From positions 1-36,904 of IMG/VR virus record IMGVR_UViG_3300042347_000200: DNA of 36,904 nucleotides. One strand, written 5' to 3'. The DNA comes from a virus. Taxonomy: Duplodnaviria; Caudoviricetes. This document shows positions 2,210 to 34,509 of the stretch, piece after piece. Made by a program: the position numbers and the translations under genes. The notes under the pieces were generated by a model that worked only from the letters and a program-made list of their open reading frames with translations, did no database searches and had not been told where the DNA came from. Numbering within the stretch: position 1 is the first letter of the stretch; each line of letters starts with the position of its first letter.

Positions 2210-4742
2210 GTTCGGCCCATGCAGGCGCAGCAGCAGGCACTATATCAAGTCCGGTAATGTGCATAATACCTCCAGATTTGACACGCTCAAATCCTCGCTG
2301 TTCAAGCTCCTGCACAAATCCCTTCTGGGCTTGCACTCCCTCTCCGGCAGATTCAACGAATTTAGAGTAACTCGTATAGGCATCAATCGAACGGCACCGT
2401 TTGCCATGCGCCACCGTGCAGCATTCTTCTAGCCATGCGCCTAGCGTGTCCTCTGCATTCAAGTAATCAGCAATTGCAGCATCCACCGCAGCAGGCCGGG
2501 ACATACCTTTGCTGCGCCATGCTTCGCCACCACGGATTGCCCATGCAAGTATTCCAGGCATTTCAGCGTCAAGCAATTCGCGGATGTTCTCTATCTTCTC
2601 GCCATCCTTGAATGATGATGGGAAATTGACTAGATGGATACGTCGGCGCATTTCCTCACCTACCGAGCGCAGGCGGGGTTTGTGGTTGCCTGCAATCGCC
2701 AGCTTGAATTGAGGGTCGAACTGGAAATAATCGCATCGCATGAATCTGGCTGATATACGATCCCTGCCGGTAAGCGTCTTGATGCGGGATTCATTCCAGC
2801 GTGAATTTTTCTCAGTTTCGGTCGCCGTTACCAATCGCGCCCCGGCAAGGCCGGCAATCTCGGTTGAGTGTTCCGCGCCCTTTGATTCTGAGAATGTCTG
2901 CATAGCTGCGGCTACGGAATAATCGCCGGCAAGCTCGCGCAGGACGTGGATAAATGTACTCTTGCCACTACCGCCAGGGCCATAGACAAACAGGAAACAC
3001 TCGAAACGAGTATCCCCTGTCAAAACGTAATAGCACCATCGGCGCAGGTATTCCACCATCTCCGGGCCACCGTGGGCGCGTTCAAGGACGGACATAAACA
3101 TGGGGATGTCTTTTTCTTCGCACCTTGAAAAGTCTGGCGTGACTTTGGTGCTTTTGGTTATGTAGTGATCTGGACTTGAATCGGATAGCGTTGCAGTTTG
3201 AAGATCAACAACTCCGCCCGGAGTGCTTAACAGAAATATGTTCGAGTCGAATGTTTCGGGGACTGTGCATTTCAGGATTCTGGCAACCTTCTCCACCTTC
3301 TCGATTTTCGGCAGGTCGCACAATGCGCGCCGCGCTGTATCGGATAGTCGCAGGGACATATCCCACCCACTGACACTTACAAGGTGCCGAAGGATTACCT
3401 TACGCGCCGAGTTAGTCCTATCCTTTTCCCAAATGCTGCCGTTCCAGTGCATCCATTTATCCCATTCCGTAACGAACACCCAGTCCTTTCCTTGATTCTG
3501 TAACCAATATCCCGCCATCGCTGGATCGCTGAATTCCGGGCCATCGGGTTCCTCGTCGGCTTTGATAGCCGTATGCCTTGCAACCTTCGCCGGCTTTATC
3601 GCAGGCGCATCGGCTATCTCTGTCGGCTGCACATCAATGGTTAGAGGTATATGCTGCGGCTCTATATCGTCGTCTATGGGTGGCAGATCGTATTCAGACC
3701 AGTCCTCCATTGGGAGCGGATTCATCGGCTCAGGCTCGCCGGCTTGCGCGGATTGCATAGTTTTTTTTTCCTCCTCAAGCCTTTGCTTTTCGAGTTCTCT
3801 GCTGCCGAGTTTCGATACCCTCGGCGCGGCCCATGCCATCAATGCTTCTTTGCTCATCCCCTCCGATAAAGCATCGGCAACATCCCACTTGTTAGGCTTG
3901 TCGCTTGTATCGAGGATGCTAACTTTACACCCAAGGGGGAGCAGGTAGCTAGCCACCTTGAACATTGCTGCCTCACCGACTCCGGTAAGGTCGGCATCAG
4001 GTATCAACAATACATCACGCCCTGCCAGTGGCGTCCAATCGACTCCGGCTATGGCATTGGCACCACCAGGCCATGCTATGCCTATGCGCGAGGCCCAATA
4101 GTGCCGCGAGGCATCGGCGGCTTTCTCGCCTTCGCTGATGACTACCTTTGCTGATGGATTCGCGGTCAGCAGATCGAGGCCGTATATCGGTCGCCGTCCA
4201 TGCGTCCATGCCTTGCTCATCCACTTCGCGGATACGTTGGTGGAGTAGCTGCCATAACTCCACGGGCGATAGTCCTTGTCGCCACCGGGCTTGACGTAGC
4301 GCACCACGTAGCCGAGTAGTGCGCCATCAGCGTCCAGGTACGTCCAGTGCGCGACGTAGGTAAGGTTTTTTATGCTGAAGTCGGTCAACGGTTCCGGTGC
4401 CACCTGATGCTGCCACGTCGCGGCTTTGATTGGCGCTTCGGCTTTGATGCGGGTATCGTCGCGCTGGAATCCGTTGGCGCGCAAACGCTTGATCGCTTCG
4501 CCTTCGTCGCAACCGTCCATCTCCATGACAACATCAATGACGGTGCCGCCGCGCCCGCAACTCTTGCAATGACATTTTTGTACTCCGTCCTTTATATAGA
4601 CCTGCATACTCGGCTTCGATTCGTCGTGGAATATGCAAAGGCAGTCGTATTCGTTTCCGCGCTGCTTTAGTTCGACGCCGTAGCCGGTCAGCAATGTGAC
4701 CATGTCCACGGATCGCTTGAGGGCGTCAAGATCGTCGGTCAT
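2199..4742 (-). CDS. Primase-helicase: CHC2 Zn finger + TOPRIM + D5/P4-alpha-like SF3 helicase
   Basis: CIFHDE...CKSC zinc finger; EGEKAADA and DAD TOPRIM motifs; Walker A GPGGSGKST; IKTLTGRD..SARF; GNHKP; RRRIHL. Start set at ATG 4742 behind AAGGAG RBS. Confidence 0.92.
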   Translation of the reverse strand: MTDDLDALKRSVDMVTLLTGYGVELKQRGNEYDCLCIFHDESKPSMQVYIKDGVQKCHCKSCGRGGTVIDVVMEMDGCDEGEAIKRLRANGFQRDDTRIKAEAPIKAATWQHQVAPEPLTDFSIKNLTYVAHWTYLDADGALLGYVVRYVKPGGDKDYRPWSYGSYSTNVSAKWMSKAWTHGRRPIYGLDLLTANPSAKVVISEGEKAADASRHYWASRIGIAWPGGANAIAGVDWTPLAGRDVLLIPDADLTGVGEAAMFKVASYLLPLGCKVSILDTSDKPNKWDVADALSEGMSKEALMAWAAPRVSKLGSRELEKQRLEEEKKTMQSAQAGEPEPMNPLPMEDWSEYDLPPIDDDIEPQHIPLTIDVQPTEIADAPAIKPAKVARHTAIKADEEPDGPEFSDPAMAGYWLQNQGKDWVFVTEWDKWMHWNGSIWEKDRTNSARKVILRHLVSVSGWDMSLRLSDTARRALCDLPKIEKVEKVARILKCTVPETFDSNIFLLSTPGGVVDLQTATLSDSSPDHYITKSTKVTPDFSRCEEKDIPMFMSVLERAHGGPEMVEYLRRWCYYVLTGDTRFECFLFVYGPGGSGKSTFIHVLRELAGDYSVAAAMQTFSESKGAEHSTEIAGLAGARLVTATETEKNSRWNESRIKTLTGRDRISARFMRCDYFQFDPQFKLAIAGNHKPRLRSVGEEMRRRIHLVNFPSSFKDGEKIENIRELLDAEMPGILAWAIRGGEAWRSKGMSRPAAVDAAIADYLNAEDTLGAWLEECCTVAHGKRCRSIDAYTSYSKFVESAGEGVQAQKGFVQELEQRGFERVKSGGIMHITGLDIVPAAAPAWAEREF

Positions 4743-4897
4743 TTCTCCTTTCCTATCTGCTGTGCGCGCTGGCGAGTAACCCCAAGATGCACCCCGATGG
4801 CCGTCCATGTAAGCCCCTGCTTGCGTAGTTTGCGCGCCTCTTTCTTACGCGACTTGCTCGCATCCAGTAGTTGCCGATATATCTGTTTAGTTTTCAT
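4739..4897 (-). CDS. Small HTH DNA-binding protein (52 aa)
   Basis: GLTWTAIGVHLGVTRQRAQQI HTH pattern; stop overlaps the primase start. Confidence 0.75.
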   Translation of the reverse strand: MKTKQIYRQLLDASKSRKKEARKLRKQGLTWTAIGVHLGVTRQRAQQIGKEK

Positions 4898-4915
4898 TTG
4901 GTTTGCAATTAGGTG

Positions 4916-4943
4916 TTGACACGGCGAATGATATGGGTAGAAT
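4916..4943 (+). promoter_or_regulatory. Sigma70-type rightward promoter for the early operon and cassette array
   Basis: TTGACA (4916-4921), 16 bp, TAGAAT (4938-4943). Confidence 0.7.
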
Positions 4944-4956
4944 CCGTCACTGTCAA
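4928..4956 (-). promoter_or_regulatory. Sigma70-type leftward promoter for HTH/primase
   Basis: On - strand: TTGACA (4956-4951), 17 bp, TATCAT (4933-4928). Confidence 0.7.
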
Positions 4957-4983: not shown

Positions 4984-5184
4984 ATGAAAGTCCGCCTGTA
5001 CCTCGTCGAAGAAATCGCCACCAAGAAAACTCGCCTGATCGAAGCCACCAATGCCGCAAGCGCAATGCGCCACGTTGCGGAGTCGCAGTTTAAGTGCGCC
5101 GTCGTTACTAGCACGTCCGAAGCTGCGCGGCTTGTGTCGGGCGGCATCAAGGTGGAGAGTGTGGGGAAGGGTGATGCGGTTTAA
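4984..5184 (+). CDS. Hypothetical phage protein (66 aa, MKVRLYLVEE...)
   Basis: AAGGA RBS; its TAA stop lies within the first attC-like core GTTTAAC. Confidence 0.75.
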   Translation: MKVRLYLVEEIATKKTRLIEATNAASAMRHVAESQFKCAVVTSTSEAARLVSGGIKVESVGKGDAV

Positions 5185-5245
5185 CGCAAAAGCTGTGGGG
5201 CTGGACGCCGCAGGCGGACAGTCCCACACGAGCGACGGGTTGTGC
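5179..5245 (-). repeat. attC-like site 1 (67 bp)
   Basis: GTTTAAC..GCT-GTG-GGG-CTG / CAG-T-CCC-A-CAC-G-AGC..GACGG-GTTGTGC; bulged T, A, G on the + strand 3' arm. Confidence 0.85.
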
Positions 5246-5269
5246 CCCGGCGATTGAACGGAGAACGAA

Positions 5270-5674
5270 ATGCAGCAACATGAACAACTGCGAAAGTACA
5301 ACCGGTGGCGGCGCGGCGACAAGCGCTTAAAGATGTCAGACCCAAAAGAACTCGGCGAACTAATAGACGGCGTGGCCGACCGGCTGGAAGTGCTGGAGCG
5401 CGAACACACGGAGTTCTTCGAGCGCTGGCACGGCGAGAGGCGGAGGCGGGAAAAGCTGGCGCATGACGTTGAGCGCTGCTACCGGATGCTGCTGTCTGAG
5501 CCAGACACGAAGGGCGCTCTATTCAAGGCCGAAAACATCCTGCGCGAGGCGCTGGGCGACCAGAAAGTCGGCTCTGGCGGCACGGCACCCGAGGGGCACA
5601 ACGACAGAGTGGAGGGGCGCGACGCAGCTTCATCGCGGCGCGTCCCTTCGCATGACGGGTTGGAGGGCAAATGA
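5270..5674 (+). CDS. Cassette 1 ORF, hypothetical (134 aa); C-terminus runs through site 2
   Basis: GGAG RBS; stop overlaps the next start (ATGA). Confidence 0.75.
   Translation: MQQHEQLRKYNRWRRGDKRLKMSDPKELGELIDGVADRLEVLEREHTEFFERWHGERRRREKLAHDVERCYRMLLSEPDTKGALFKAENILREALGDQKVGSGGTAPEGHNDRVEGRDAASSRRVPSHDGLEGK
5596..5665 (-). repeat. attC-like site 2 (70 bp)
   Basis: GCACAAC..GTGGAGGGGCGC / GCG-T-CCCTTC-G-CAT-GACGG-GTTGGAG. Confidence 0.85.
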
Positions 5675-6234
5675 CCCAGCGGCAACAAGCGCGGTTTGAA
5701 GGTTTTTCGGTGACGCACTCGAACCCGGCTGACATCGTGATGACAGACAGAGTGGTGGCGCGGAAGATTGTCGAGCACTTCCGTCCGCGCGGTACCGTGC
5801 TTGATCCGTGCCGGGGCGACGGCGCGTTCTTCGACGAAATGCCCGGCGCTGACTGGTGCGAAGTGAGGGAAGGCCGAGACTTTTTTGAGTGGAACACCCA
5901 CGTGGACTGGATTGTGAGCAACCCACCGTTCAGCATTTTTTTCGAGTGGCTGCGGCACAGCATGAGCTTGGCGGATGACATCGTGTATTTGATTCCGCTC
6001 GGGAAGGTTTGGCAGTCAAACAGGGTGCTGCGCATGGTTCATGAGTGGGGCGGGATACGGGAGATTCTGATTGTCGGCAACGGCAGGAAAGAACTCGGGT
6101 TCCCGGTCGGCTTTGCGGTAGGCGCGGTGCATTTTCAGAGGGGGTACCGGGGCGACATGCGCAACGGGTTCTTGCCCTCCAACGCCCAAGTAACCGGCGC
6201 TTCGCCGGCCCTTATGGCGAAGCGTCCGCGTTGA
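5671..6234 (+). CDS. Cassette 2 ORF, small N6-adenine DNA methyltransferase-like protein
   Basis: VLDPCRGDGAF (motif I), DFF and WIVSNPPF (motif IV). Confidence 0.8.
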   Translation: MTQRQQARFEGFSVTHSNPADIVMTDRVVARKIVEHFRPRGTVLDPCRGDGAFFDEMPGADWCEVREGRDFFEWNTHVDWIVSNPPFSIFFEWLRHSMSLADDIVYLIPLGKVWQSNRVLRMVHEWGGIREILIVGNGRKELGFPVGFAVGAVHFQRGYRGDMRNGFLPSNAQVTGASPALMAKRPR

Positions 6235-6248
6235 CTGAAATGTTGGGC
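6177..6248 (-). repeat. attC-like site 3 (72 bp)
   Basis: CTCCAAC..AGT-AAC-CGG-CGCTTCGCC / GGCGAAGCG-T-CCG-C-GTT-G-ACT..GTTGGGC. Confidence 0.9.
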
Positions 6249-6270
6249 GGAATTTTTACGGAGAAATGAC

Positions 6271-6669
6271 ATGAACGGACGAATACTCACCTGCGTTTAT
6301 TGCGGGCACGAATACCCACAGGACACGCCGGCAGCAGGAAGCCAGGTGCTGACGGAGCACATCAAGGTTTGCGAGCGGCACCCGATGCGGAAGGCCGAAG
6401 GCGACATTGCCCTGCTGCGCGGCGCGCTCGTTGGCCTGATCGGCACAGACGGCGAGGATGATCTGCGGCAGATGGAAGCGACGATGCGACTGTTGCCGGC
6501 ACCGGACGCCGACAAGGCGGTTTCGATCAACGCGATTCATGCGCTGCTGGCGACCATGCCGCCCAACGCACGAGGTCAGGCGACTGACGCGGCCTTATCG
6601 CGGCAGGTCGCCTGCACTGACGGGTTGTGCGGCAACGGTAACTACGGAGAGCAAAAAGATGGACGGTGA
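6271..6669 (+). CDS. Cassette 3 ORF, putative Zn-binding protein (CxxC...HxxxC); reads through site 4
   Basis: CVYCG and HIKVCERHP; GGAG RBS. Confidence 0.75.
   Translation: MNGRILTCVYCGHEYPQDTPAAGSQVLTEHIKVCERHPMRKAEGDIALLRGALVGLIGTDGEDDLRQMEATMRLLPAPDADKAVSINAIHALLATMPPNARGQATDAALSRQVACTDGLCGNGNYGEQKDGR
6561..6630 (-). repeat. attC-like site 4 (70 bp)
   Basis: GCCCAAC..GGT-CAGGCGAC-TG / CA-G-GTCGCCTG-C-ACT-GACGG-GTTGTGC; bulge identities differ from the other sites. Confidence 0.8.
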
Positions 6670-6901
6670 TGATATCAAGTGGGACAACAGGAGCATGCCT
6701 CATTACCCGAAGGGCATGCCACTTTGGCAGCGCATGATGTGTCTGCTTGGCTACCACAAAGCCGAGACGCGGCAGACCGCCAAGGGGCACTGCTACGGGT
6801 TCGAGACTGAGGAAGGCAAGCGGAAAGGCGTCTTTGGGCTGCACGACGAGACGCCGATGAAGCTGCGCGACCAGTGCGGCAGATGCGGGACGCTGCTTTG
6901 A
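6659..6901 (+). CDS. Cassette 4 ORF, small Cys/His phage-type protein (80 aa)
   Basis: GGAG RBS; MCLLGYH...CGRCG pattern seen in small prophage proteins. Confidence 0.65.
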   Translation: MDGDDIKWDNRSMPHYPKGMPLWQRMMCLLGYHKAETRQTAKGHCYGFETEEGKRKGVFGLHDETPMKLRDQCGRCGTLL

Positions 6902-6902
6902 C

Positions 6903-6973
6903 GTACAACGCCGACCATGAGGGGCGACAAAAAGCGTAGCTTTTTGGCGTCCCTCTCGATGAACTAGTTGGGC
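6903..6973 (-). repeat. attC-like site 5 (71 bp)
   Basis: GTACAAC..CAT-GAGGGG-CG..CAAAAAGC-GTA-GCTTTTTG..CG-T-CCCTCTC-G-ATG..GTTGGGC. Confidence 0.85.
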
Positions 6974-6998
6974 GGCTGCGCCCGGAGAGGCAACAACG

Positions 6999-7256
6999 AT
7001 GGCAACGATAGCCGAAAAGAACTTTGAGAAAGCCCTGCTTGATCTGGCGGGCGAGGATGTTTCAACCGCCCTGTCTGTGCTGACCGGGTGCTTTGTCAGC
7101 CTGACCCTTGAGGTGCTGCGCCGAAAAGGCCACGTTCCTGACGGCGACATCAAGATCGACGGCGGCGACCAGCGGGACATCACGATTCATCCGCCAAAGA
7201 CGCCCAACGCAAAAGTCAGCGGTGCCGGAACGGCGTCCGCTGGACTGCCGGGTTAG
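6999..7256 (+). CDS. Cassette 5 ORF, hypothetical (85 aa); tail encoded by site 6
   Basis: GAGG RBS; ends PNAKVSGAGTASAGLPG, the translation of the hairpin. Confidence 0.75.
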   Translation: MATIAEKNFEKALLDLAGEDVSTALSVLTGCFVSLTLEVLRRKGHVPDGDIKIDGGDQRDITIHPPKTPNAKVSGAGTASAGLPG

Positions 7257-7258
7257 CC
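7202..7258 (-). repeat. attC-like site 6 (57 bp)
   Basis: GCCCAAC..AGT-CAGCGG-TGCCG-GAA-CGGCG-T-CCGCTG-G-ACT..GTTAGCC. Confidence 0.9.
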
Positions 7259-7271
7259 AACAGGAGGAAAC

Positions 7272-7547
7272 ATGAAACAAGAGATTGCGGAACTGGAACA
7301 AATGCAAAAGCGCCTAGCCGAGATAAAGGCGCTGGCCGAAAAGAATGCAGCGGAACGCGAAGCGGGCGGATGCTACGACGACGAATTGCTGGCCGAGTGC
7401 ATGAGCGTGCTTGAGTATGCGACGTACCATGACGGGCGCTATGGGCAAGACCAAAACTGGGAGAACTTCCAGAGTCCAGCGCAGAAGCTGGTGTTGCGAC
7501 TGGCGAAGCGGCTCGGGCGGAAAGCATACGATGGCTTTGGTGGCTAA
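7272..7547 (+). CDS. Cassette 6 ORF, hypothetical (91 aa)
   Basis: AGGAGG RBS; TAA stop inside core GGCTAAC. Confidence 0.75.
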   Translation: MKQEIAELEQMQKRLAEIKALAEKNAAEREAGGCYDDELLAECMSVLEYATYHDGRYGQDQNWENFQSPAQKLVLRLAKRLGRKAYDGFGG

Positions 7548-7614
7548 CGATCTAGGTAACCGGCGCGACGCCGGCCCTATCGGTGGCGCGTCCGTGTTGA
7601 CCGACGAGTTAGCA
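7542..7614 (-). repeat. attC-like site 7 (73 bp)
   Basis: GGCTAAC..GGT-AAC-CGG-CGCG..CGCG-T-CCG-T-GTT-G-ACC..GTTAGCA. Confidence 0.88.
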
Positions 7615-7631
7615 GGCAAACGGGAAGGGTG

Positions 7632-8336
7632 ATGATGGCTGAGAAAGTGACAATCGGGAATTGCGAACTGTGGCACGGTGACTGCCGCGAAGTGCTGCCG
7701 CTGCTGCCTGATTTTGACTTGCTATTGACAGACCCGCCATATGAGATCGGAACCGCATGGCACGGCGATTTTGCCGGGAAGAACGGGAAGGCCGCAATGT
7801 GGGGAACTGCCCCTGAGTGGGACAAACTTTGCGACGACGGCGTTTCTCTTGGGGTTCAGAAGGCGCAGGAGGCGGTTGTTTGGGGTGGGCATTTGTACGC
7901 ACTTCCTCAACGCTCGCGCTGGCTTTCTTGGGACAAGTGCCAGACTTTCAGCAGCGGCGACTTTGAACTCGCATGGACGAACGGAAGCGGGGCAACGCGG
8001 GTTTTTCGGATGTCTCGGATTGACGCATACCAAAACAGCGGCGAAGGGAAAGAACACCCGACGCAGAAGCCCACGGCCTTGATGGAATGGTGCCTGAGCT
8101 TGCACCCAAAGGCTCGGACGGTTTGTGACCCATTCATGGGCAGCGGAACAACTGGCGTTGCCTGCGCCCGGATGGGGTTGCAGTTCGTCGGCATAGAGCG
8201 TGAGCGCAAATACTTCGAGATTGCCTGCCGCCGAATAGAGCAAGCCTACGCACAGCCTCGGCTGTTCGAGGATACGAAAGTCGGCGCTGGCGAGACGGCG
8301 GTGCAGGGCGACATGCTTTTGCCTGCCAACGTCTGA
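7632..8336 (+). CDS. Cassette 7 ORF, N4-C/N6-A DNA methyltransferase (beta-class motif order)
   Basis: LWHGDC, LTDPPY, HPTQKP, DPFMGSGTTG and FVGIE; start may be 7629, 7632 or 7635. Confidence 0.92.
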   Translation: MMAEKVTIGNCELWHGDCREVLPLLPDFDLLLTDPPYEIGTAWHGDFAGKNGKAAMWGTAPEWDKLCDDGVSLGVQKAQEAVVWGGHLYALPQRSRWLSWDKCQTFSSGDFELAWTNGSGATRVFRMSRIDAYQNSGEGKEHPTQKPTALMEWCLSLHPKARTVCDPFMGSGTTGVACARMGLQFVGIERERKYFEIACRRIEQAYAQPRLFEDTKVGAGETAVQGDMLLPANV

Positions 8337-8391
8337 AATAACCGGGACACGCGGCATCATCGCGTGGCTCCGGTTGATTGACGGGTTAGCC
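8324..8391 (-). repeat. attC-like site 8 (68 bp)
   Basis: TGCCAAC..AAT-AACCGG..CACGCG/CGCGTG..T-CCGGTT-G-ATT-GACGG-GTTAGCC. Confidence 0.88.
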
Positions 8392-8432
8392 GGCTCCCGT
8401 TAAAGGCCGGCACAAGTTGGAGATAAAACCCA

Positions 8433-8594
8433 ATGAAAGCCACAATCGAAGCCGCAATAAAGAACCTGACCGAAAAGGCCCAAGCCGCAAAGCCTGACGA
8501 CGTGCTGAAGTACTCGCAGGCCGCGCTGAACTTGGCGCACACCGAAGCCACGCTGGAAGCAACGCGGCGTGAGAACGAGAAACAGAAGACGTAA
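8433..8594 (+). CDS. Cassette 8 ORF, 53-aa helical protein (MKATIEAAIKNLTEKA...), not in the supplied ORF track
   Basis: GGAG RBS; fills most of the cassette. Confidence 0.7.
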   Translation: MKATIEAAIKNLTEKAQAAKPDDVLKYSQAALNLAHTEATLEATRRENEKQKT

Positions 8595-8625
8595 TGAGCG
8601 GCCGTCACTGGTCAAGGCTGGTGAC

Positions 8626-8688
8626 GGCTAACGCTGGCGTAACCGGCGCTGAGCTTGCGAAGCGTCCGCGTTGACGCAAATGTTAGGC
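8626..8688 (-). repeat. attC-like site 9 (63 bp)
   Basis: GGCTAAC..GCGT-AAC-CGG-CGCT..AGCG-T-CCG-C-GTT-G-ACGC..GTTAGGC. Confidence 0.88.
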
Positions 8689-8706
8689 AACGATTTCGGA
8701 GGAAAC

Positions 8707-8886
8707 ATGGACAACTTTAACGACCTTTACCCGAAACAACGAACTGGTAAAGAGTGCAAGAAAACGGATTGCGACAGGCATAAGAATTATGTTGCATGGC
8801 AGTGCGGCACTTCAAGCCTTAGCTTCTGCATTGAGTGCAAACATGCTCACGTTTCGCAGTACAAGCGCAAGGTGTCTAACGGCTGA
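8707..8886 (+). CDS. Cassette 9 ORF, 59-aa Cys-rich protein
   Basis: GGAGG RBS; five Cys including CIEC. Confidence 0.7.
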   Translation: MDNFNDLYPKQRTGKECKKTDCDRHKNYVAWQCGTSSLSFCIECKHAHVSQYKRKVSNG

Positions 8887-8941
8887 AATAACCGGCGTGC
8901 CGCGCTTTTGCGGCACGTCCGGGTTGATTGATTAGTTCGGC
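8874..8941 (-). repeat. attC-like site 10 (68 bp)
   Basis: GTCTAAC..AAT-AAC-CGG-CGTGCCGC/GCGGCACG-T-CCG-G-GTT-G-ATT..GTTCGGC. Confidence 0.9.
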
Positions 8942-8976
8942 GTCTTGCCGGAGCCGACTTTTGAAAAGGATAAGCG

Positions 8977-9225
8977 ATGGACATTGAACAAGCGTGCCGT
9001 GCGTCTCGGCGCAACAGGGCCAAGGTGCAGGCAGCGAAGGAATGCGGCTGCTATTTCTGTCTCCGATCGTTCCCGTCAACGGATGTTGTTGATTGGGCCG
9101 ACCTGGACGAAATGACGGCGCTTTGCCCGCACTGTGGGATTGACTCGGTGTTGCCATCTGTGACGGACAAGGAAGCACTGATAGCAGCAAACGAACGGTG
9201 GTTCTGTGAGACGCCGAACGTCTGA
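8977..9225 (+). CDS. Cassette 10 ORF, small Zn-ribbon protein (82 aa)
   Basis: CGCYFCL...ALCPHCGIDSV; AAGGA RBS. Confidence 0.8.
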   Translation: MDIEQACRASRRNRAKVQAAKECGCYFCLRSFPSTDVVDWADLDEMTALCPHCGIDSVLPSVTDKEALIAANERWFCETPNV

Positions 9226-9279
9226 ATTCACCGGCCTGCGCGGCTTTTCGCGCAGGTCCGGTGGAATGACGGGTTAGCC
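9213..9279 (-). repeat. attC-like site 11 (67 bp)
   Basis: - strand reads GGCTAAC-CCGTC-ATTCCACCGGACCTGCGCGAAAAGCCGCGCAGGCCGGTGAAT-TCAGAC-GTTCGGC, a canonical top-strand attC layout. Confidence 0.92.
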
Positions 9280-9322
9280 GTGCGCCCGATGAAGGCACGG
9301 CAACACAACAAAGGAAACGACC

Positions 9323-9547
9323 ATGAATGAAGGATACGCAATGGAAATGGCAGCGAAGCAAGCGGGCGTACTTGGTGGCTACGCGAAAGACCCGATGCAG
9401 CAGATGACGTGCGGCGAGAATTTGGAGCGCAAGATTGCCGAGCAGAAGGAGCGGCTGGCGATGTTGGAAAACGCGATGGAGGAAATGAAAGCCACCGGCC
9501 TTTACAACGTGAAGATTTCCACCCTGCGCGACACGATGTCATGGTGA
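9323..9547 (+). CDS. Cassette 11 ORF, hypothetical coiled-coil protein (74 aa)
   Basis: AAGGA RBS; stop 1 nt before the terminal core. Confidence 0.75.
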   Translation: MNEGYAMEMAAKQAGVLGGYAKDPMQQMTCGENLERKIAEQKERLAMLENAMEEMKATGLYNVKISTLRDTMSW

Positions 9548-9548
9548 C

Positions 9549-9567
9549 GGCTAACGTTAAGTAGCCC
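9549..9567 (-). other. Terminal half-site (attI-like simple site or truncated attC)
   Basis: GGCTAAC-GTTAA-GTAGCCC; the core matches the site 11 end (ACGGCTAAC/GTTAGCCGT) but no hairpin body follows. Confidence 0.65.
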
Positions 9568-9585
9568 TACCGTGCAAGGTACACT

Positions 9586-9891
9586 ATGACCTATCGACTG
9601 ACCAAAAAAGCCGCACAGACCCGCCTCGCAGCCATGCGACGAGGCCGGGAGCGTGTGCGCTTGGACGGACCGGCGCCGGAATATCCGCAACCGCTACCAG
9701 AACTTCGTCGGCAGATCATCATCCGTGATTTCGACTTCGGCGAGAAGATTCACACGCTCGACCTGTACCGGACTGATCGCGTCGACTGCTACCGCGTGGT
9801 CGCCGATGGCGTTGAATGGAAAGAGCGCATCGGATGGTCGAAGATTCTGGCGGGACTGCGGAAATCCATGCCGCGTGTCGGATCAATTTAA
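9586..9891 (+). CDS. Hypothetical protein (101 aa)
   Basis: AAGG RBS; co-directional with the operon. Confidence 0.7.
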   Translation: MTYRLTKKAAQTRLAAMRRGRERVRLDGPAPEYPQPLPELRRQIIIRDFDFGEKIHTLDLYRTDRVDCYRVVADGVEWKERIGWSKILAGLRKSMPRVGSI

Positions 9892-9952
9892 TTGCGCGTT
9901 GTAAGTTTCGTGTAAGTTTCAGCAGGAGAATTACACACAAGGAGGTAGCACA

Positions 9953-10138
9953 ATGAAACCTGTACCGCAGTACCAAGCAACAGTAGAGCAGCAGCATCCG
10001 GCGATGGATGGCGTAGCAAATCTTATCGTAGTAGGGCAGACGTTCGGCACCCATGACGAGTGCTGGAACGCTGCTAAAGCGATGACGAAGTTTCCTGTCA
10101 TCCAGTTCAAGGAAGTTCATCATGGGCAGAAGTGCTGA
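9953..10138 (+). CDS. Hypothetical protein (61 aa)
   Basis: AAGGAGG RBS. Confidence 0.65.
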   Translation: MKPVPQYQATVEQQHPAMDGVANLIVVGQTFGTHDECWNAAKAMTKFPVIQFKEVHHGQKC

Positions 10139-10421
10139 AATGTGGCAAGAGCAGCAGGACGAGGATAATCAGCAACCCGATACGCTGGCCGAGGAACAAT
10201 GGAGCATGAGCAACTACAGGCCAGACCCACACCGAATGGCGCAAATCATCGCCGCATCCAGTCTCAAGGATTGCCGCGCCGATCCTAACAACCAATTGGG
10301 CGACTGGCACGATGGTCGCACCACAGCTATCGCGCTGATGTACTACGAGCCGGAAATCCTCGCCGCTGCGAACGAAGTCCGTTTCCTCGTCGGGCAGTAT
10401 AAGTGGAGGCACTTCGCATGA
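10122..10421 (+). CDS. Hypothetical protein (99 aa)
   Basis: AAGGA RBS; stop overlaps the next start. Confidence 0.6.
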   Translation: MGRSAEMWQEQQDEDNQQPDTLAEEQWSMSNYRPDPHRMAQIIAASSLKDCRADPNNQLGDWHDGRTTAIALMYYEPEILAAANEVRFLVGQYKWRHFA

Positions 10422-13660: not shown

Positions 13661-14130
13661 TGAAAAAGAAGCTCACCTTAAACGAAACCATACGCCTTAA
13701 CGAGAAGGCTCTGCGCGGCCTTTGCTTCGCGGCAGGTAAGCCAATGCCAGAAGGCTTCGATACGCCCGCCAAAGAGGTTAAAACACGCGCTCCGAGCAAG
13801 CCACCGGAGTACCCACTGGAACACGAAGAACAAAAGAACTTCGTCAAGTGGTTCAGGATGCAATATCCGAAGGTTCGCATCTTCGCCGTACCGAATGCCG
13901 CCATGCGGGATTACAAACTCGCAGCGTATTTAGTTGCGGAAGGACTCACGGCAGGAGTACCGGATTTGCTAGTGCTTGACTGGAAACTAGGCATCGAAAT
14001 GAAGCGCGTCAAAGGTTCAACAATCAGCGACGATCAACGCGAATGGGAAATCTACCTTCGCAACATCGGATGGCATCACATCTATGCCTACGGGTGCAAG
14101 GACGCCATTGAAAAGGTGCAGCAACTATGA
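13660..14130 (+). CDS. VRR-NUC family endonuclease
   Basis: EHEEQ, FAVPN, EGLTAGVPDL, IEMKR and S.DQ.EW. Confidence 0.85.
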   Translation: MKKKLTLNETIRLNEKALRGLCFAAGKPMPEGFDTPAKEVKTRAPSKPPEYPLEHEEQKNFVKWFRMQYPKVRIFAVPNAAMRDYKLAAYLVAEGLTAGVPDLLVLDWKLGIEMKRVKGSTISDDQREWEIYLRNIGWHHIYAYGCKDAIEKVQQL

Positions 14131-31836: not shown

Positions 31837-33861
31837 CTACATCGCTTGATCCACGTATTCCTTGTCCTTCATGTTCTTTTCACGAGTCACCATCATCTGC
31901 ATCTTGGCGATGTTCTCGTTGCTCATAATGTCCTTTTCGGCGATCATCAATTCGGCGATCTTTGCCCTTCGCTCGAAGTCCTTACCCTCTTGGTCATCGT
32001 CAAGATTGTTGCTCAACGCCGAAATCATCTTCGCTTTTGCTTCTTCTGGAGCGAGTTGCGCTTCAACCGTGGTCTTCTGCGCTTCGGCCTGCAACTTCTG
32101 CACTTCAGCCTGTTTCTTCGCCATCTCAAGCTGCACACCCTGCTGCGCCATCTGCTGCTGCTGCGGATCAGGTTGCGATTGCTTCGCCATCTGTTCAAGC
32201 ATCTGCTCACGGTTGTTCAGCGAGGAATTCCTGATTATTCCCTGCATCAGGATCGGCGTCAGTGGCGATTGCGCCCCAAGAGTCTGAATCAGGAATGCCA
32301 ACTGCTTCTGCTCGTACTCACGGGCAATGATGCCAAGAGTCGCAGTCGGGATGAACTTCACATCAGCACTCGGATACCGCTCCGGTGCGAACTGCATGTA
32401 TCGCCACGCGGCCTTGCAGATGAACGGGATCAGGAAGTCCTCCTGGAAATTCACCAGAGTACGCTTGTACTTCTTAATCATGGTCGCCGTCGCCATGTCC
32501 ATGTTCGTATCACGCGCAACCTGCGATACCGATCCATTGGAATCAATCGTCGCCGTCGCCATCAGCAACATGCGCTCGAATTCCTTACTGGTGGTCATCG
32601 CCGCACCGTCGTTTGTACCGAAATGGAACGGCAACAGGATTTCATTCGGGTTTCCGTTGGTCATCACGCCCTTTCCGGGCTTGACCTCGAACTTCGCGCC
32701 TCGCGGCCAGCGGGTAGCGTCAATCGCTACCATCGGAGCAACCGTCAGGGCCAGTGCGTCCATGTGTGAGCGCATCGAACCATCGACTGCGGCCTGCATA
32801 TTGGATGCTTTTTCGGCAGTTCCGCGCCCCAACAGGCGATTTGGCACTGTATCCGCCTGATAGCAGATAACCGGCCTGTCCTTCATCATGTAGGGGGATT
32901 CTTCGGCTTTCAGCAGTGTTCCGTCATTGGCGATGATGATGATCGCCTCAACCATGTCGGAATAGTCTTCTATGGACTCAGAAACGCCTTCAATTTCAGC
33001 AAATTCCTCTTTCGACAGGTACTCACGCGGCACAAGACCGTAGTAGGTCAGCAGTTTTACCTTGTCGTCCTCGAAATTCCTCGCTTCGGTCGTCGCCTCG
33101 ATGTCGTCAGAGTCGTACATCGCTCCAATATCGACGTTCAGGTACTTTCCAGACGCAATTCCCTGTGCAATCTTGTGGATCGAGACATATCGCTCAATCG
33201 CCACGCCCATACAGTCGTCAATCGACGTTCCATTCGGGTCAAACAGGAAATTTCTCGGATTTACCGGGGCCAATTTGACGGAAATCCGGTCTTTTTCACC
33301 AACCCCATACGCAGCAGTCTGCGCGTCAATCGGAACCTGCATGGGTTTGTACTGTTTTTCGCTGCCGACAGTGATTTCGGCGATGCCCGTCCCGTAAATC
33401 TCGCCCATCAGCGTGATTTGGTCGATACTTTTGCGGATTTTGTCCTGCGCGAAGTCCTCGTACAGCTTCGCTTTCATCACCTCAACATCGACGCTACCGG
33501 ATTTGTCCTCAATATCGTCCTTGATGTCGAAAAACTCGCCCTGGCCGAAGATCGCTTCCATTATCTCGGCATGGCGTGTCTCGATGGCCTGCTGTGTTGC
33601 CGGTGAGATTACCCGACTGCGTTCGGATTCCCTTGCTTTGTCGCTGGCGTCCCACACTCCGCGCCAGATGCGCTCGTATTTGTCCCACAGGTCTTGGTAA
33701 TTTTGATCCCTATATTCCCGCCACCTCTCGCAGTGGTCGCTGACAAAGGCCGTAAGCTCCTTGTCGTTCTCGGTAGGCTCGTAATAAATGGTCGCCGGTT
33801 CTTCAGTCGTGTCATCCACGACATGCCCTGTGTTCTCGAAATTCACTTTGTCGGCGTCCAT
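31837..33861 (-). CDS. Portal protein
   Basis: 674 aa between terL and scaffold; IYGTGI and NFLFDP; Q-rich C-terminal coiled coil; AAGGAG RBS. Confidence 0.88.
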   Translation of the reverse strand: MDADKVNFENTGHVVDDTTEEPATIYYEPTENDKELTAFVSDHCERWREYRDQNYQDLWDKYERIWRGVWDASDKARESERSRVISPATQQAIETRHAEIMEAIFGQGEFFDIKDDIEDKSGSVDVEVMKAKLYEDFAQDKIRKSIDQITLMGEIYGTGIAEITVGSEKQYKPMQVPIDAQTAAYGVGEKDRISVKLAPVNPRNFLFDPNGTSIDDCMGVAIERYVSIHKIAQGIASGKYLNVDIGAMYDSDDIEATTEARNFEDDKVKLLTYYGLVPREYLSKEEFAEIEGVSESIEDYSDMVEAIIIIANDGTLLKAEESPYMMKDRPVICYQADTVPNRLLGRGTAEKASNMQAAVDGSMRSHMDALALTVAPMVAIDATRWPRGAKFEVKPGKGVMTNGNPNEILLPFHFGTNDGAAMTTSKEFERMLLMATATIDSNGSVSQVARDTNMDMATATMIKKYKRTLVNFQEDFLIPFICKAAWRYMQFAPERYPSADVKFIPTATLGIIAREYEQKQLAFLIQTLGAQSPLTPILMQGIIRNSSLNNREQMLEQMAKQSQPDPQQQQMAQQGVQLEMAKKQAEVQKLQAEAQKTTVEAQLAPEEAKAKMISALSNNLDDDQEGKDFERRAKIAELMIAEKDIMSNENIAKMQMMVTREKNMKDKEYVDQAM

Positions 33862-33900
33862 CTTTACTCCTTGACTGCGGTAAGAACCTATCCGGTTAGC

Positions 33901-33929
33901 AACTTACTACATTGCCATCTTCCTGTCAA
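33901..33929 (-). promoter_or_regulatory. Sigma70-type promoter upstream of portal
   Basis: TTGACA, 17 bp, TAAGTT on - strand. Confidence 0.5.
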
Positions 33930-34026
33930 TATTGTAGAATATCCACATCGGGACAGGGCCGGCCAGCCTTTCCACTGCCACTTCAGCGGATTACCGATAC
34001 CATCCTTTTACCATGTGGGGTATCCA

Positions 34027-34509
34027 GTGATTACACAATCCAGGCTCAAAGAGCTTCTTCACTACAACGAAGAAACAGGCGTTTTTACGCGTAAAACCAC
34101 AAGAGGCCCGAAAGCAATAAAAGGGCAAATTGCAGGGTCTGAGAATAGTTTTGGATACATGACAATAGGTATAGATGGTAAATATTACAAATCACATAGG
34201 CTTGCTTGGCTCTATGTTCATGGCGAGTTCCCATCTAACGACATTGACCACATAAACGGCATCAGGTCCGAAAACATGATCCGCAATCTTAGGGTTGTGA
34301 CAGTTGGCGAAAATATGCAGAACCAAAAAGGCCCAAGGAGTAACAATAAAACTGGGGTTTTAGGTGTTTGTGAGCATAGTGGAAGATATGTTGCTCAAAT
34401 ACAGGTCAATAAAAAGCATATCCATATCGGAATGTACTCTACTGCGGAAGAAGCTCACGAAGCATACTTGGCAGAGAAACGTAAAATTCATCCGGCCTGC
34501 ACTATCTAA
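34027..34509 (+). CDS. HNH endonuclease with C-terminal AP2-like domain (free-standing homing endonuclease)
   Basis: LKELLHYNEETG, HRLAWLY, IDHING..N...NLR, TGVLGV and TAEEAHEAY; visibly AT-richer than its flanks. Confidence 0.9.
   Translation: MITQSRLKELLHYNEETGVFTRKTTRGPKAIKGQIAGSENSFGYMTIGIDGKYYKSHRLAWLYVHGEFPSNDIDHINGIRSENMIRNLRVVTVGENMQNQKGPRSNNKTGVLGVCEHSGRYVAQIQVNKKHIHIGMYSTAEEAHEAYLAEKRKIHPACTI

Follow-up and report, generated by a model that had tools for sequence, protein, structure and literature searches.

An Integrase-Less Lake Phage Array of attC-Headed Cassettes with Genes on the attC Bottom Strand: A Probable Integron Platform Served in Trans

Introduction

Integrons are known as bacterial devices, in which strand-selective recombination places the captured genes under the control of the Pc promoter, and recent work portrays them as repositories of anti-phage defence. 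The way in which new cassettes arise is described as largely unknown (PMC5371416). CALINs and integrons have already been published in phage genomes by Qi 2023 (PMC9892861); the available part of that report describes integrase-less attC clusters with methyltransferase cassettes, much like the locus studied here, and phage attC sites recombined by IntI1 with a preference for the bottom strand. Bottom-strand ORFs, an attI kept without intI, and exchange between phages do not appear in that part of the text. We rechecked two of these CALINs: the one of TJE1 is canonical, and in MW202573 both detected sites (2/2) have their bottom strand on the strand that codes the ORFs.

Near-identical attC sites (58/59 nt), the same bulges, and a similar attI are found in class 1 integrons and in the sedentary chromosomal integrons of betaproteobacteria such as Pseudothauera nasutitermitis (L149/L267), and the attC-attI-intI geometry of these systems is that of the IntI-carrying relatives of our phage. 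Their ORFs, however, precede the attC on the top strand and are read from Pc, whereas here they follow the attC on the bottom strand, intI is absent, and the newest cassette would be promoter-distal. In the inverted integron-integrase group of Treponema (Cury et al., 10.1101/030866), intI and the cassette genes share one direction, as far as the available text goes, a likeness with our case; there, it is intI that is turned relative to attC, whereas in the phage relatives only the ORFs are turned and the intI-attC arrangement is the usual one (intI on the attC bottom strand in 25/25 loci), which sets them outside that group. Finally, the single-cassette insertions at attG sites (Loot et al., 10.1101/2022.09.11.507474) also involve IntI in trans and sites outside an integron; in the portion of that source at hand, attG is a short core, while the attI-like site at 9553 described below is longer and conserved among phages, and 11 cassettes have accumulated at it.

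Array Layout and Hairpin Polarity

The window, i.e., the whole 36.9-kb stretch of lake-phage DNA analysed, contains 11 AAC...GTT hairpins within 5183-9275, and all 11 are attC sites, with an imperfect hairpin, AAC/GTT R boxes, an unpaired central spacer, and L boxes. Our bottom-strand detector (AAC, a spacer of 5-6 nt, 3 bp, a bulged G, 6 bp with an optional middle bulge, and a bulged T on the 3' arm) recovered 10/11 of them, every one on +, and nothing in the rest of the 36.9 kb; shuffled windows (n = 10) gave 0 sites in each. The strict version missed site 4, which has a C at the expected G position. The features of the locus are as follows:

4916..4943, +: sigma-70-like promoter, candidate driver of the array (11/12 consensus bases; consensus match only)
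4956-4928, -: divergent sigma-70-like promoter overlapping 4916-4943 (11/12 consensus bases; consensus match only)
4984..5184, +: platform gene g0, 66 aa; stop overlaps the AAC of the left junction; kept in L247, L255, L256, L258, and L259
5183..5241, +: attC 1, bulges G/A/T, heading cassette 1; its AAC at 5183 is the left array junction; L247 has another hairpin after 5186
5270..5674, +: ORF 1, reading through attC 2
5600..5661, +: attC 2, G/T (fold and detector)
5671..6234, +: ORF 2, DNA methyltransferase (phrog_799, E 1e-27); stop inside attC 3
6181..6244, +: attC 3, G/C/T, travelling with ORF 3 (6181-6567 100% identical in L065)
6271..6669, +: ORF 3, reading through attC 4; homologue in the G447 prophage
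6565..6626, +: attC 4, atypical, C at the G position (folding; missed by the strict detector)
6659..6901, +: ORF 4 (ORF call)
6907..6969, +: attC 5, G/T/T (fold and detector)
6999..7256, +: ORF 5 (phrog_18086), reading through attC 6
7206..7254, +: attC 6, G/T (fold and detector)
7272..7547, +: ORF 6; stop overlaps the next AAC
7546..7610, +: attC 7, G/T/T (fold and detector)
7635..8336, +: ORF 7, N6/N4 DNA methyltransferase (PF01555); stop inside attC 8
8328..8387, +: attC 8, G/T (fold and detector)
8433..8594, +: ORF 8 (ORF call)
8630..8684, +: attC 9, G/C/T (fold and detector)
8707..8886, +: ORF 9, Cys-rich; stop inside attC 10
8878..8937, +: attC 10, G/G/T (fold and detector)
8977..9225, +: ORF 10 (phrog_30788); stop inside attC 11
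9217..9275, +: attC 11, G/T; 1-2 mismatches to betaproteobacterial attC sites (L149, L085, L128, L091)
9323..9547, +: ORF 11, attI-proximal; absent in 4/4 runs compared
9553..9582, +: attI-like primary site, a half-site without hairpin, predicted entry point and part of the platform (conserved half-site, profile score)
9586..9891, +: platform gene g12, 101 aa, at the position occupied by intI in related phages

In 10/11 sites, a G and a T separated by 6 bp, with or without a further base between them, are extrahelical on the arm that faces the cleaved AAC. According to Nivina 2016, such bulges are a feature of the bottom strand, where they face the AAC that is cleaved, and the attC-aadA7 bottom strand given as a reference in Table S3 of Qi 2023 (PMC9892861), in the part available, has the same layout as the hairpins of the window. 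The 11 array ORFs are all on + (11/11), that is, on the attC bottom strand, each downstream of its own attC; the canonical cassette, whose top-strand ORF precedes its attC and faces away from Pc, is thus not what the locus displays. The initial annotation had described the 11 ORFs as antisense to canonical attC polarity and + strand folding as favoured, and both points held, constrained DNA folding giving the more stable fold on + rather than on - at 11/11 sites. The array ends are also as it had proposed, with a full hairpin on the left and, on the right, an AAC (9553) that finds no hairpin partner even under a loose scan.

Two of the array ORFs encode DNA methyltransferases. Seven have no stop of their own and stay in frame through the crossover AAC, the stop being supplied by the next hairpin; among viral read-through cassettes, the AAC is in frame 0 in 64/70. 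Moreover, the 3' flank of each hairpin and the 5' flank of the following site are complementary at a mean of 7.5 of 10 positions vs. 4.3 for the other pairs, a difference reached in 0/100000 permutations.

Right-Hand Site and Integrase

On a profile built from only 11 bacterial intI-adjacent sites, AAC 9553 ranks third of the 1174 AAC sites, two non-array sites ranking higher. It scores 5.9 on this bacterial attI profile vs. -1.4 on the profile of 31 phage-IntI sites; the half-site is conserved across phages, and in IntI-less viral loci 23/25 non-hairpin terminal sites fit the bacterial profile better. On these scores, the right-hand site looks like a host-type bacterial attI. No tyrosine recombinase was found in the genome (CheckV 100% complete), with no PF00589 match at E<=1 and no PHROG integrase among its 52 ORFs, so the intI in cis of a complete integron is missing. 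Neither strand has a promoter-like site near 9553 and the ORFs point towards the attI-like site, which leaves no Pc there. By our detector and the PF00589 search rather than IntegronFinder, the array is a CALIN, defined as >=2 same-strand attC within 4 kb with no neighbouring intI.

In related phages, the terminal site is followed by an intact IntI where the window phage has g12. One such IntI (G029), encoded by a phage that also has tape measure and tail fibre J genes, exceeds the TIGR02249 cut-off of 265 with 453 bits. Half of the viral IntI loci (25/50) have upstream attC sites, and in 25/25 of them the bottom strand is on the intI strand; 21 of these loci are inverted, 1 was called canonical, and 3 were left uncalled. 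In a 44-row IntI tree, 29 viral IntIs group at 92/91 support, with 14/15 inverted loci; the sampling comprised only 8 bacterial rows and started from a viral query, so a phage-only IntI clade is not established. As for g12, a role as recombinase or accessory factor receives no support: it has no match in Pfam, PHROG, NCBIfam, or PADLOC, an atlas match of 0.79 only, and a model (pLDDT 80) for which Foldseek returned nothing at E<=0.001 (best Z 4.1).

Our main reading, to which we give a probability of about 0.8, is that the locus is an integrase-less phage integron platform, with 11 attC-headed cassettes that end at an attI-like site, bottom-strand genes, cassettes likely moved by IntI in trans (most likely that of the host), and a far-end phage early promoter from which the array is likely read. 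According to known IntI chemistry, the folded + strand would be cut at the 5'-arm AAC; attC x attC recombination would excise a circle, and attC x attI would insert one at 9553. Insertion there would, therefore, place the newest cassette farthest from the promoter and keep the oldest one closest to it, opposite to Pc logic. The array would be transcribed within the early operon leading to recE/recT/ssb. In a host integron, such bottom-strand genes would face away from Pc and hence be silent; conversely, host cassettes captured at 9553 would be antisense. The promoter-distal entry suggested by the initial annotation is supported by the attI-like sequence, by the IntI that follows the terminal site in relatives, and by the absence of cassette 11 in 4/4 runs.

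Instead of the host chromosome, the source of the IntI could also be a temperate phage that carries intI and is either co-infecting or resident, with the same cassettes and the same site, a possibility that deserves attention even if we consider it clearly the less probable source. IntI-carrying phages do exist and share cassette 3 at 100%, run X7 has cassette 1 joined to their type of attI, and a full IntI adjoins an array in 5/100 viral records tested. One has to keep in mind, however, that integrases prefer their cognate attI, and it is the bacterial profile that the 9553 site fits (5.9), its phage-IntI score being -1.4.

Cassette Unit and Exchange between Phages

As judged from the breakpoints compared, the cassette is shown to run from AAC through hairpin and ORF to the next AAC, with the attC upstream of its ORF, and the alignments show units to be exchanged between phages precisely at AACs. 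Cassette 3 (387 bp, AAC to AAC) recurs with 100% identity in L065, a different type of phage with a long tail, and in a 99%-identical relative, the same pair of AACs encloses an entirely different array. L247 has AAC breakpoints at both array ends, and the L260 breakpoint is also at an AAC. Public contigs show joints at 6564>7546 and 9216/9220>9553 (the intervening sequence being marked not known for 3 of 4 joints) and loose ends at 5183, 5602, 5603, and 6181. In all 16 pairs whose ORF regions are >=80% identical, the upstream hairpin reaches an identity of >=0.91; in the 15 non-syntenic pairs, it is the better kept one in 7, and the downstream hairpin in 0. These mappings, which the initial annotation had proposed as a check, uphold its unit of upstream attC plus ORF, although the downstream hairpin is the better kept one in two pairs of lower identity (65-67%), which count against it. 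Both the cassette-end complementarity and the AAC crossover on the bottom strand come from comparison, not biochemistry. It is likely that cassettes are swapped among phages at these exact junctions by a borrowed host integrase.

A shuffling of the array mainly by phage RecET homologous recombination between similar hairpins, IntI being minor today, seems unlikely to us. It is true that recE/recT lie just downstream of the array, and that hairpin 2 is retained with ORF 1 while the next ORF differs (L256, with 3 hairpin differences, L258/L259, and a loose end at 5662), the switch being at the 3' end of the shared hairpin; these cases fit near-identical attC variants, but also a 3'-arm crossover or a RecET swap. 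Most breakpoints, however, coincide with an AAC that is flanked by dissimilar hairpins, an insertion at the half-site offers only a few shared bases, and each unit retains its end complementarity. Somewhat less likely still is a frozen relic, in which a formerly complete phage integron has shed its intI and is left with cassette loss alone: intI is indeed lacking in cis and all public-contig joints can be read as losses, but L247 and L260 hold different cassettes on the same platform, and cassette 3 is without mismatch to its copy in the other phage type. Lastly, that the - strand recombines, or that each hairpin belongs to the upstream ORF in a canonical layout whose bulges merely look inverted, is very improbable and largely refuted by the junctions already, since the hairpin-2 cases and the low-rate top-strand recombination of some attC (Nivina 2016) are outweighed by the 5'-arm AAC breakpoints, the 7 to 0 co-travel, the left hairpin and right half-site, and the intI position in relatives.

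The population comparison covers four runs on the array and is therefore thin, and none of the 13 g0/g12 loci has an empty platform site. Among 401 genomes, ORF 3 has 2 matches, one strong (the prophage of G447) and one weak; attG insertion may account for the single cassette-3 homologue in a transposable prophage.

Viral and Bacterial Arrays

The initial annotation had suggested a phage-specific cassette class and a survey of ORF-versus-attC orientation. We ran this survey, and it supports such a class: 49/58 viral arrays are inverted, 1 is canonical, and 8 are tied, vs. 0/13 inverted bacterial arrays, on loci chosen by hairpin patterns from the window itself. Of 32 bacterial cassettes, 31 have the ORF on the top strand ahead of the attC. 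The orientation caller is a heuristic using start codon and ribosome-binding site, and it left 29/163 viral cassettes ambiguous and called 9 canonical. A longest-ORF caller had given 2 false canonical calls on the window itself and was dropped because of this noise. A chromosomal-integron attC of Pseudothauera shares 58/59 nt with hairpin 11, and there the ORF is on the opposite strand. All tested bacterial genomes from the attC pattern scan carry IntI (5/5), and 26/301 genomes of that scan's bacterial family match the array, with single hairpins among the matches listed. The inverted ORF/attC layout was not found described in the literature searched.

These results suggest a widespread phage version with reversed genes, in which the same recombination chemistry would serve the phage, and a layout separating two gene pools that have recombination sites in common; if host integrase is borrowed, the phage pool would be beyond reach of the host integron promoter. 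At even odds, we propose a parallel phage integron economy, in which integrase-less phages would keep a host-type attI to borrow host IntI and temperate phages would carry their own IntI branch, around one common pool of cassettes with host attC and reversed genes frame-locked to the crossover; with the genes reversed, phage operons could use this pool, host Pc could not read it, and captured host defence cassettes would be silenced. Since the attC sites are nearly the host's while the genes are phage genes, such cassettes must have been made anew; if this is true, they offer a way into the question of cassette genesis, with concrete cases in host-like attC sites joined to reversed phage genes and in a methyltransferase known from cassette and backbone. 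The inverted layout would escape annotation tools in which the strands of ORF and attC are not compared.

Metatranscriptome contigs, which carry neither strand nor level, cover 20/30 bins. PADLOC matches of the cassettes are methyltransferase models or weak. ORF 2 has no relatives in the viral contigs searched, and its search of the phages collection returned one match, the MW202573 methyltransferase, without attC nearby; the same methyltransferase gene occurs both within a cassette and in a phage backbone.

Genomic Context of the Array

The window is an entire virus record with a completeness rating of 100% and encodes terminase, portal, major head and virion proteins, a primase-helicase, RecE, RecT and SSB. 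No tape measure protein was matched among its genes; a short tail is therefore likely. No tyrosine recombinase is encoded anywhere in this complete record, and the array, which is a real feature, is by definition a CALIN (attC cluster without a neighbouring integrase). It lies between a divergent pair of predicted promoters and recE/recT, and the public runs containing it are for the most part lake-water metagenomes.

4916-4956, both strands: overlapping divergent sigma-70-like promoters, predicted from sequence likeness
4739-4900, − strand: small HTH-like gene (weak PF13384 match), preceded by the leftward promoter and followed by the primase-helicase gene
33694-34509, + strand: HNH endonuclease gene between the terminase and portal genes, on the strand opposite to theirs

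Polarity of the attC Hairpins

The array consists of 11 hairpins followed by a terminal half-site at 9553; an attC detector found no site elsewhere in the genome and none in each of 10 shuffled control windows. As the initial annotation had claimed, the bulged G and T lie on the 3′ arm of the + strand in 10/11 hairpins, hairpin 4 being the exception, with a C at the usual G position, and + strand folding is favoured, being more stable than that of the − strand in all 11. Polarity was calibrated on two external references: the aadA7 bottom strand, which has the same layout as our hairpins on + (Qi 2023, PMC9892861), and the chromosome of Pseudothauera nasutitermitis, whose complete integron has an attC differing from hairpin 11 by one mismatch, with the cassette ORF on the strand opposite to that matching hairpin 11 and intI on the bottom strand. 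All 11 array ORFs were indeed on +, most with a purine-rich leader ahead of the ATG, and their cassettes fail the canonical integron orientation rule. The ends are also as annotated, with hairpin 1, owned by the array according to locus L247 (see below), on the left and, on the right, the half-site at 9553, where no attC fold is possible.

A phage-specific cassette class had been suggested, and the orientation survey with the same hairpin pattern agrees: among 58 arrays in viral contigs, 49 were inverted, 1 canonical and 8 ambiguous (125, 9 and 29 of 163 cassettes, respectively), versus no inverted array in bacterial genomes (13/13 canonical; 31/32 cassettes canonical, 1 inverted), the genome scan covering 12 of 64 collection parts and flanks coming from 80 of 129 loci. 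The tally excludes units whose ends were poorly complementary and those with gaps outside 120-1000 bases. A second bacterial set of 19 cassettes gave 18 canonical and 1 ambiguous. The provirus record L015 holds a canonical, host-like integron fragment: its cassettes are near-identical and in tandem, and its intI match is broken.

CALINs and integrons in phages have already been described (PMC9892861). Rechecked here, the published phage CALIN MW202573 (locus L369, 2073-2336) proved inverted at both detected sites, whereas that of TJE1 is canonical. We found no report of bottom-strand ORFs in the accessible parts of PMC9892861, PMC5027507, 10.1101/030866, 10.1101/2022.09.11.507474, PMC8946536, PMC8876359, PMC8618304, PMC5371416 and PMC11511950; subscription papers and bioRxiv supplements lay outside the search, and an earlier description may exist.

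The Cassette Unit

The 3′ flank of each hairpin is complementary to the bases preceding the next AAC, the crossover triplet (7.5/10 versus 4.3; 0/100000 permutations), which is a mark of once-circular cassettes. Window 6181-6567 (hairpin 3 and ORF 3) is identical in L065, another viral locus, identity beginning and ending at AAC; as L065 was retrieved via hairpin 3 itself, it is the downstream break that is unbiased. In L247, both flanks are 99% identical to the window and the array differs between 5186 and 9550; hairpin 1 is therefore part of the array and the half-site part of the platform (the flanking phage genes). Locus L260 shares cassettes 7-10, then carries other cassettes as far as the same half-site. 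Across 199 units, 16 pairs were at least 80% identical between hairpins, the upstream hairpin being at least 0.91 identical in 16/16; in 15 non-syntenic pairs, it was better kept than the downstream one in 7 and the reverse held in 0. Among four public runs, joints at AAC (joint ends only) skip cassettes 4-6 in two and cassette 11 in three, and cassette 11 has no cover in any of the four.

These comparisons show that, as the initial annotation had proposed, a unit is an ORF with its upstream hairpin, and that in homologous cassettes the two travel together, with one reservation: in a few loci (L256, L258/L259 and one loose end in public runs), hairpin 2 stays with ORF 1 and the next ORF has changed. 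A swap by RecET may have produced these cases. In L256, hairpin 2 carries 3 differences from the window amid otherwise near-identical DNA, and the simplest reading is therefore a look-alike attC heading a different cassette.

ORF 1 and ORF 7 end in coding sequence (5563-5586, 8276-8299) similar to the 5′ arm of hairpin 6 (7211-7234), which suggests decayed attC arms absorbed into genes. The cassette-7 methyltransferase gene (7629-8307) also occurs without any attC in related phage backbones (L256 8646-9324, L258 6361-7039), at a place equivalent to window 13662-13675; the L256 copy (94% nt identity) retains part of the arm-like tail. In a bacterial genome (G447, locus L365, ~9890-10263), a transposable prophage carries a lone cassette-3 homologue (84% nt), inserted amid its head genes together with an upstream hairpin of its own; the start codon differs.

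The Right-Hand Site and the Integrase

A profile built from 11 bacterial sites adjacent to intI places 9553 3rd of 1174 AAC sites, versus 81-894 for the 11 hairpin AACs. By inspection, a similar site precedes g12, the right flanking gene, in 13/13 distinct upstream regions, attC being detected upstream in 10. The g12 product (9586-9891) belongs to a conserved 101-aa family (301 homologues) preceded by an attI-like site across divergent phages; at its position, L256 has a different gene and half-site.

Other phages with the same arrays carry an intact IntI directly after the terminal site; G029, a temperate phage with a long tail, carries cassette 3 and encodes an excisionase, an integrase and, in addition, an IntI scoring 453 bits. 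Among fifty viral loci with IntI relatives (L288-L337), 25 have attC upstream; in 25/25 of these the intI strand holds the attC bottom strand, as in ordinary integrons, and in 21/25 the ORFs are inverted. Many of the fifty share a compact attI 64-90 bases upstream of intI, and intI would therefore end the cassette operon as its last gene.

Most arrays lack IntI: a full one was found in 5 of 100 viral records tested, many of them fragments. Bacterial genomes from the pattern scan, bearing the names Rhodocyclaceae and Sterolibacteriaceae, had IntI in 5/5 tested. The bacterial profile is a better fit than the phage-IntI one for site 9553, as it is for 23/25 terminal sites in loci that lack IntI, which points to a host enzyme as the IntI probably acting on our array.

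Proposed Mechanism and Translation Across the Crossover

Structure, polarity, unit boundaries, exchange and attI likeness are observed for the array, as is IntI in its relatives; from these sequences, it would work like an integron without its own integrase, by a mechanism in part inferred. IntI in trans would cleave the folded + strand at AAC; circles would be excised between hairpins, then inserted at 9553; the early promoter would transcribe the array toward recET, leaving newly gained cassettes promoter-distal; and a host Pc (integron cassette promoter) would not express the genes. We give this overall mechanism a probability of roughly 80%, the enzyme source being its least certain step.

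In seven array ORFs, no stop codon comes before the crossover; each of them passes through AAC in frame 0, as do 64 of 70 viral read-through cassettes, 22 of which end two codons past AAC, within the next hairpin. In ordinary integrons, the expression of an array is shaped by translation of its cassettes (PMC11511950), which may bear on this read-through.
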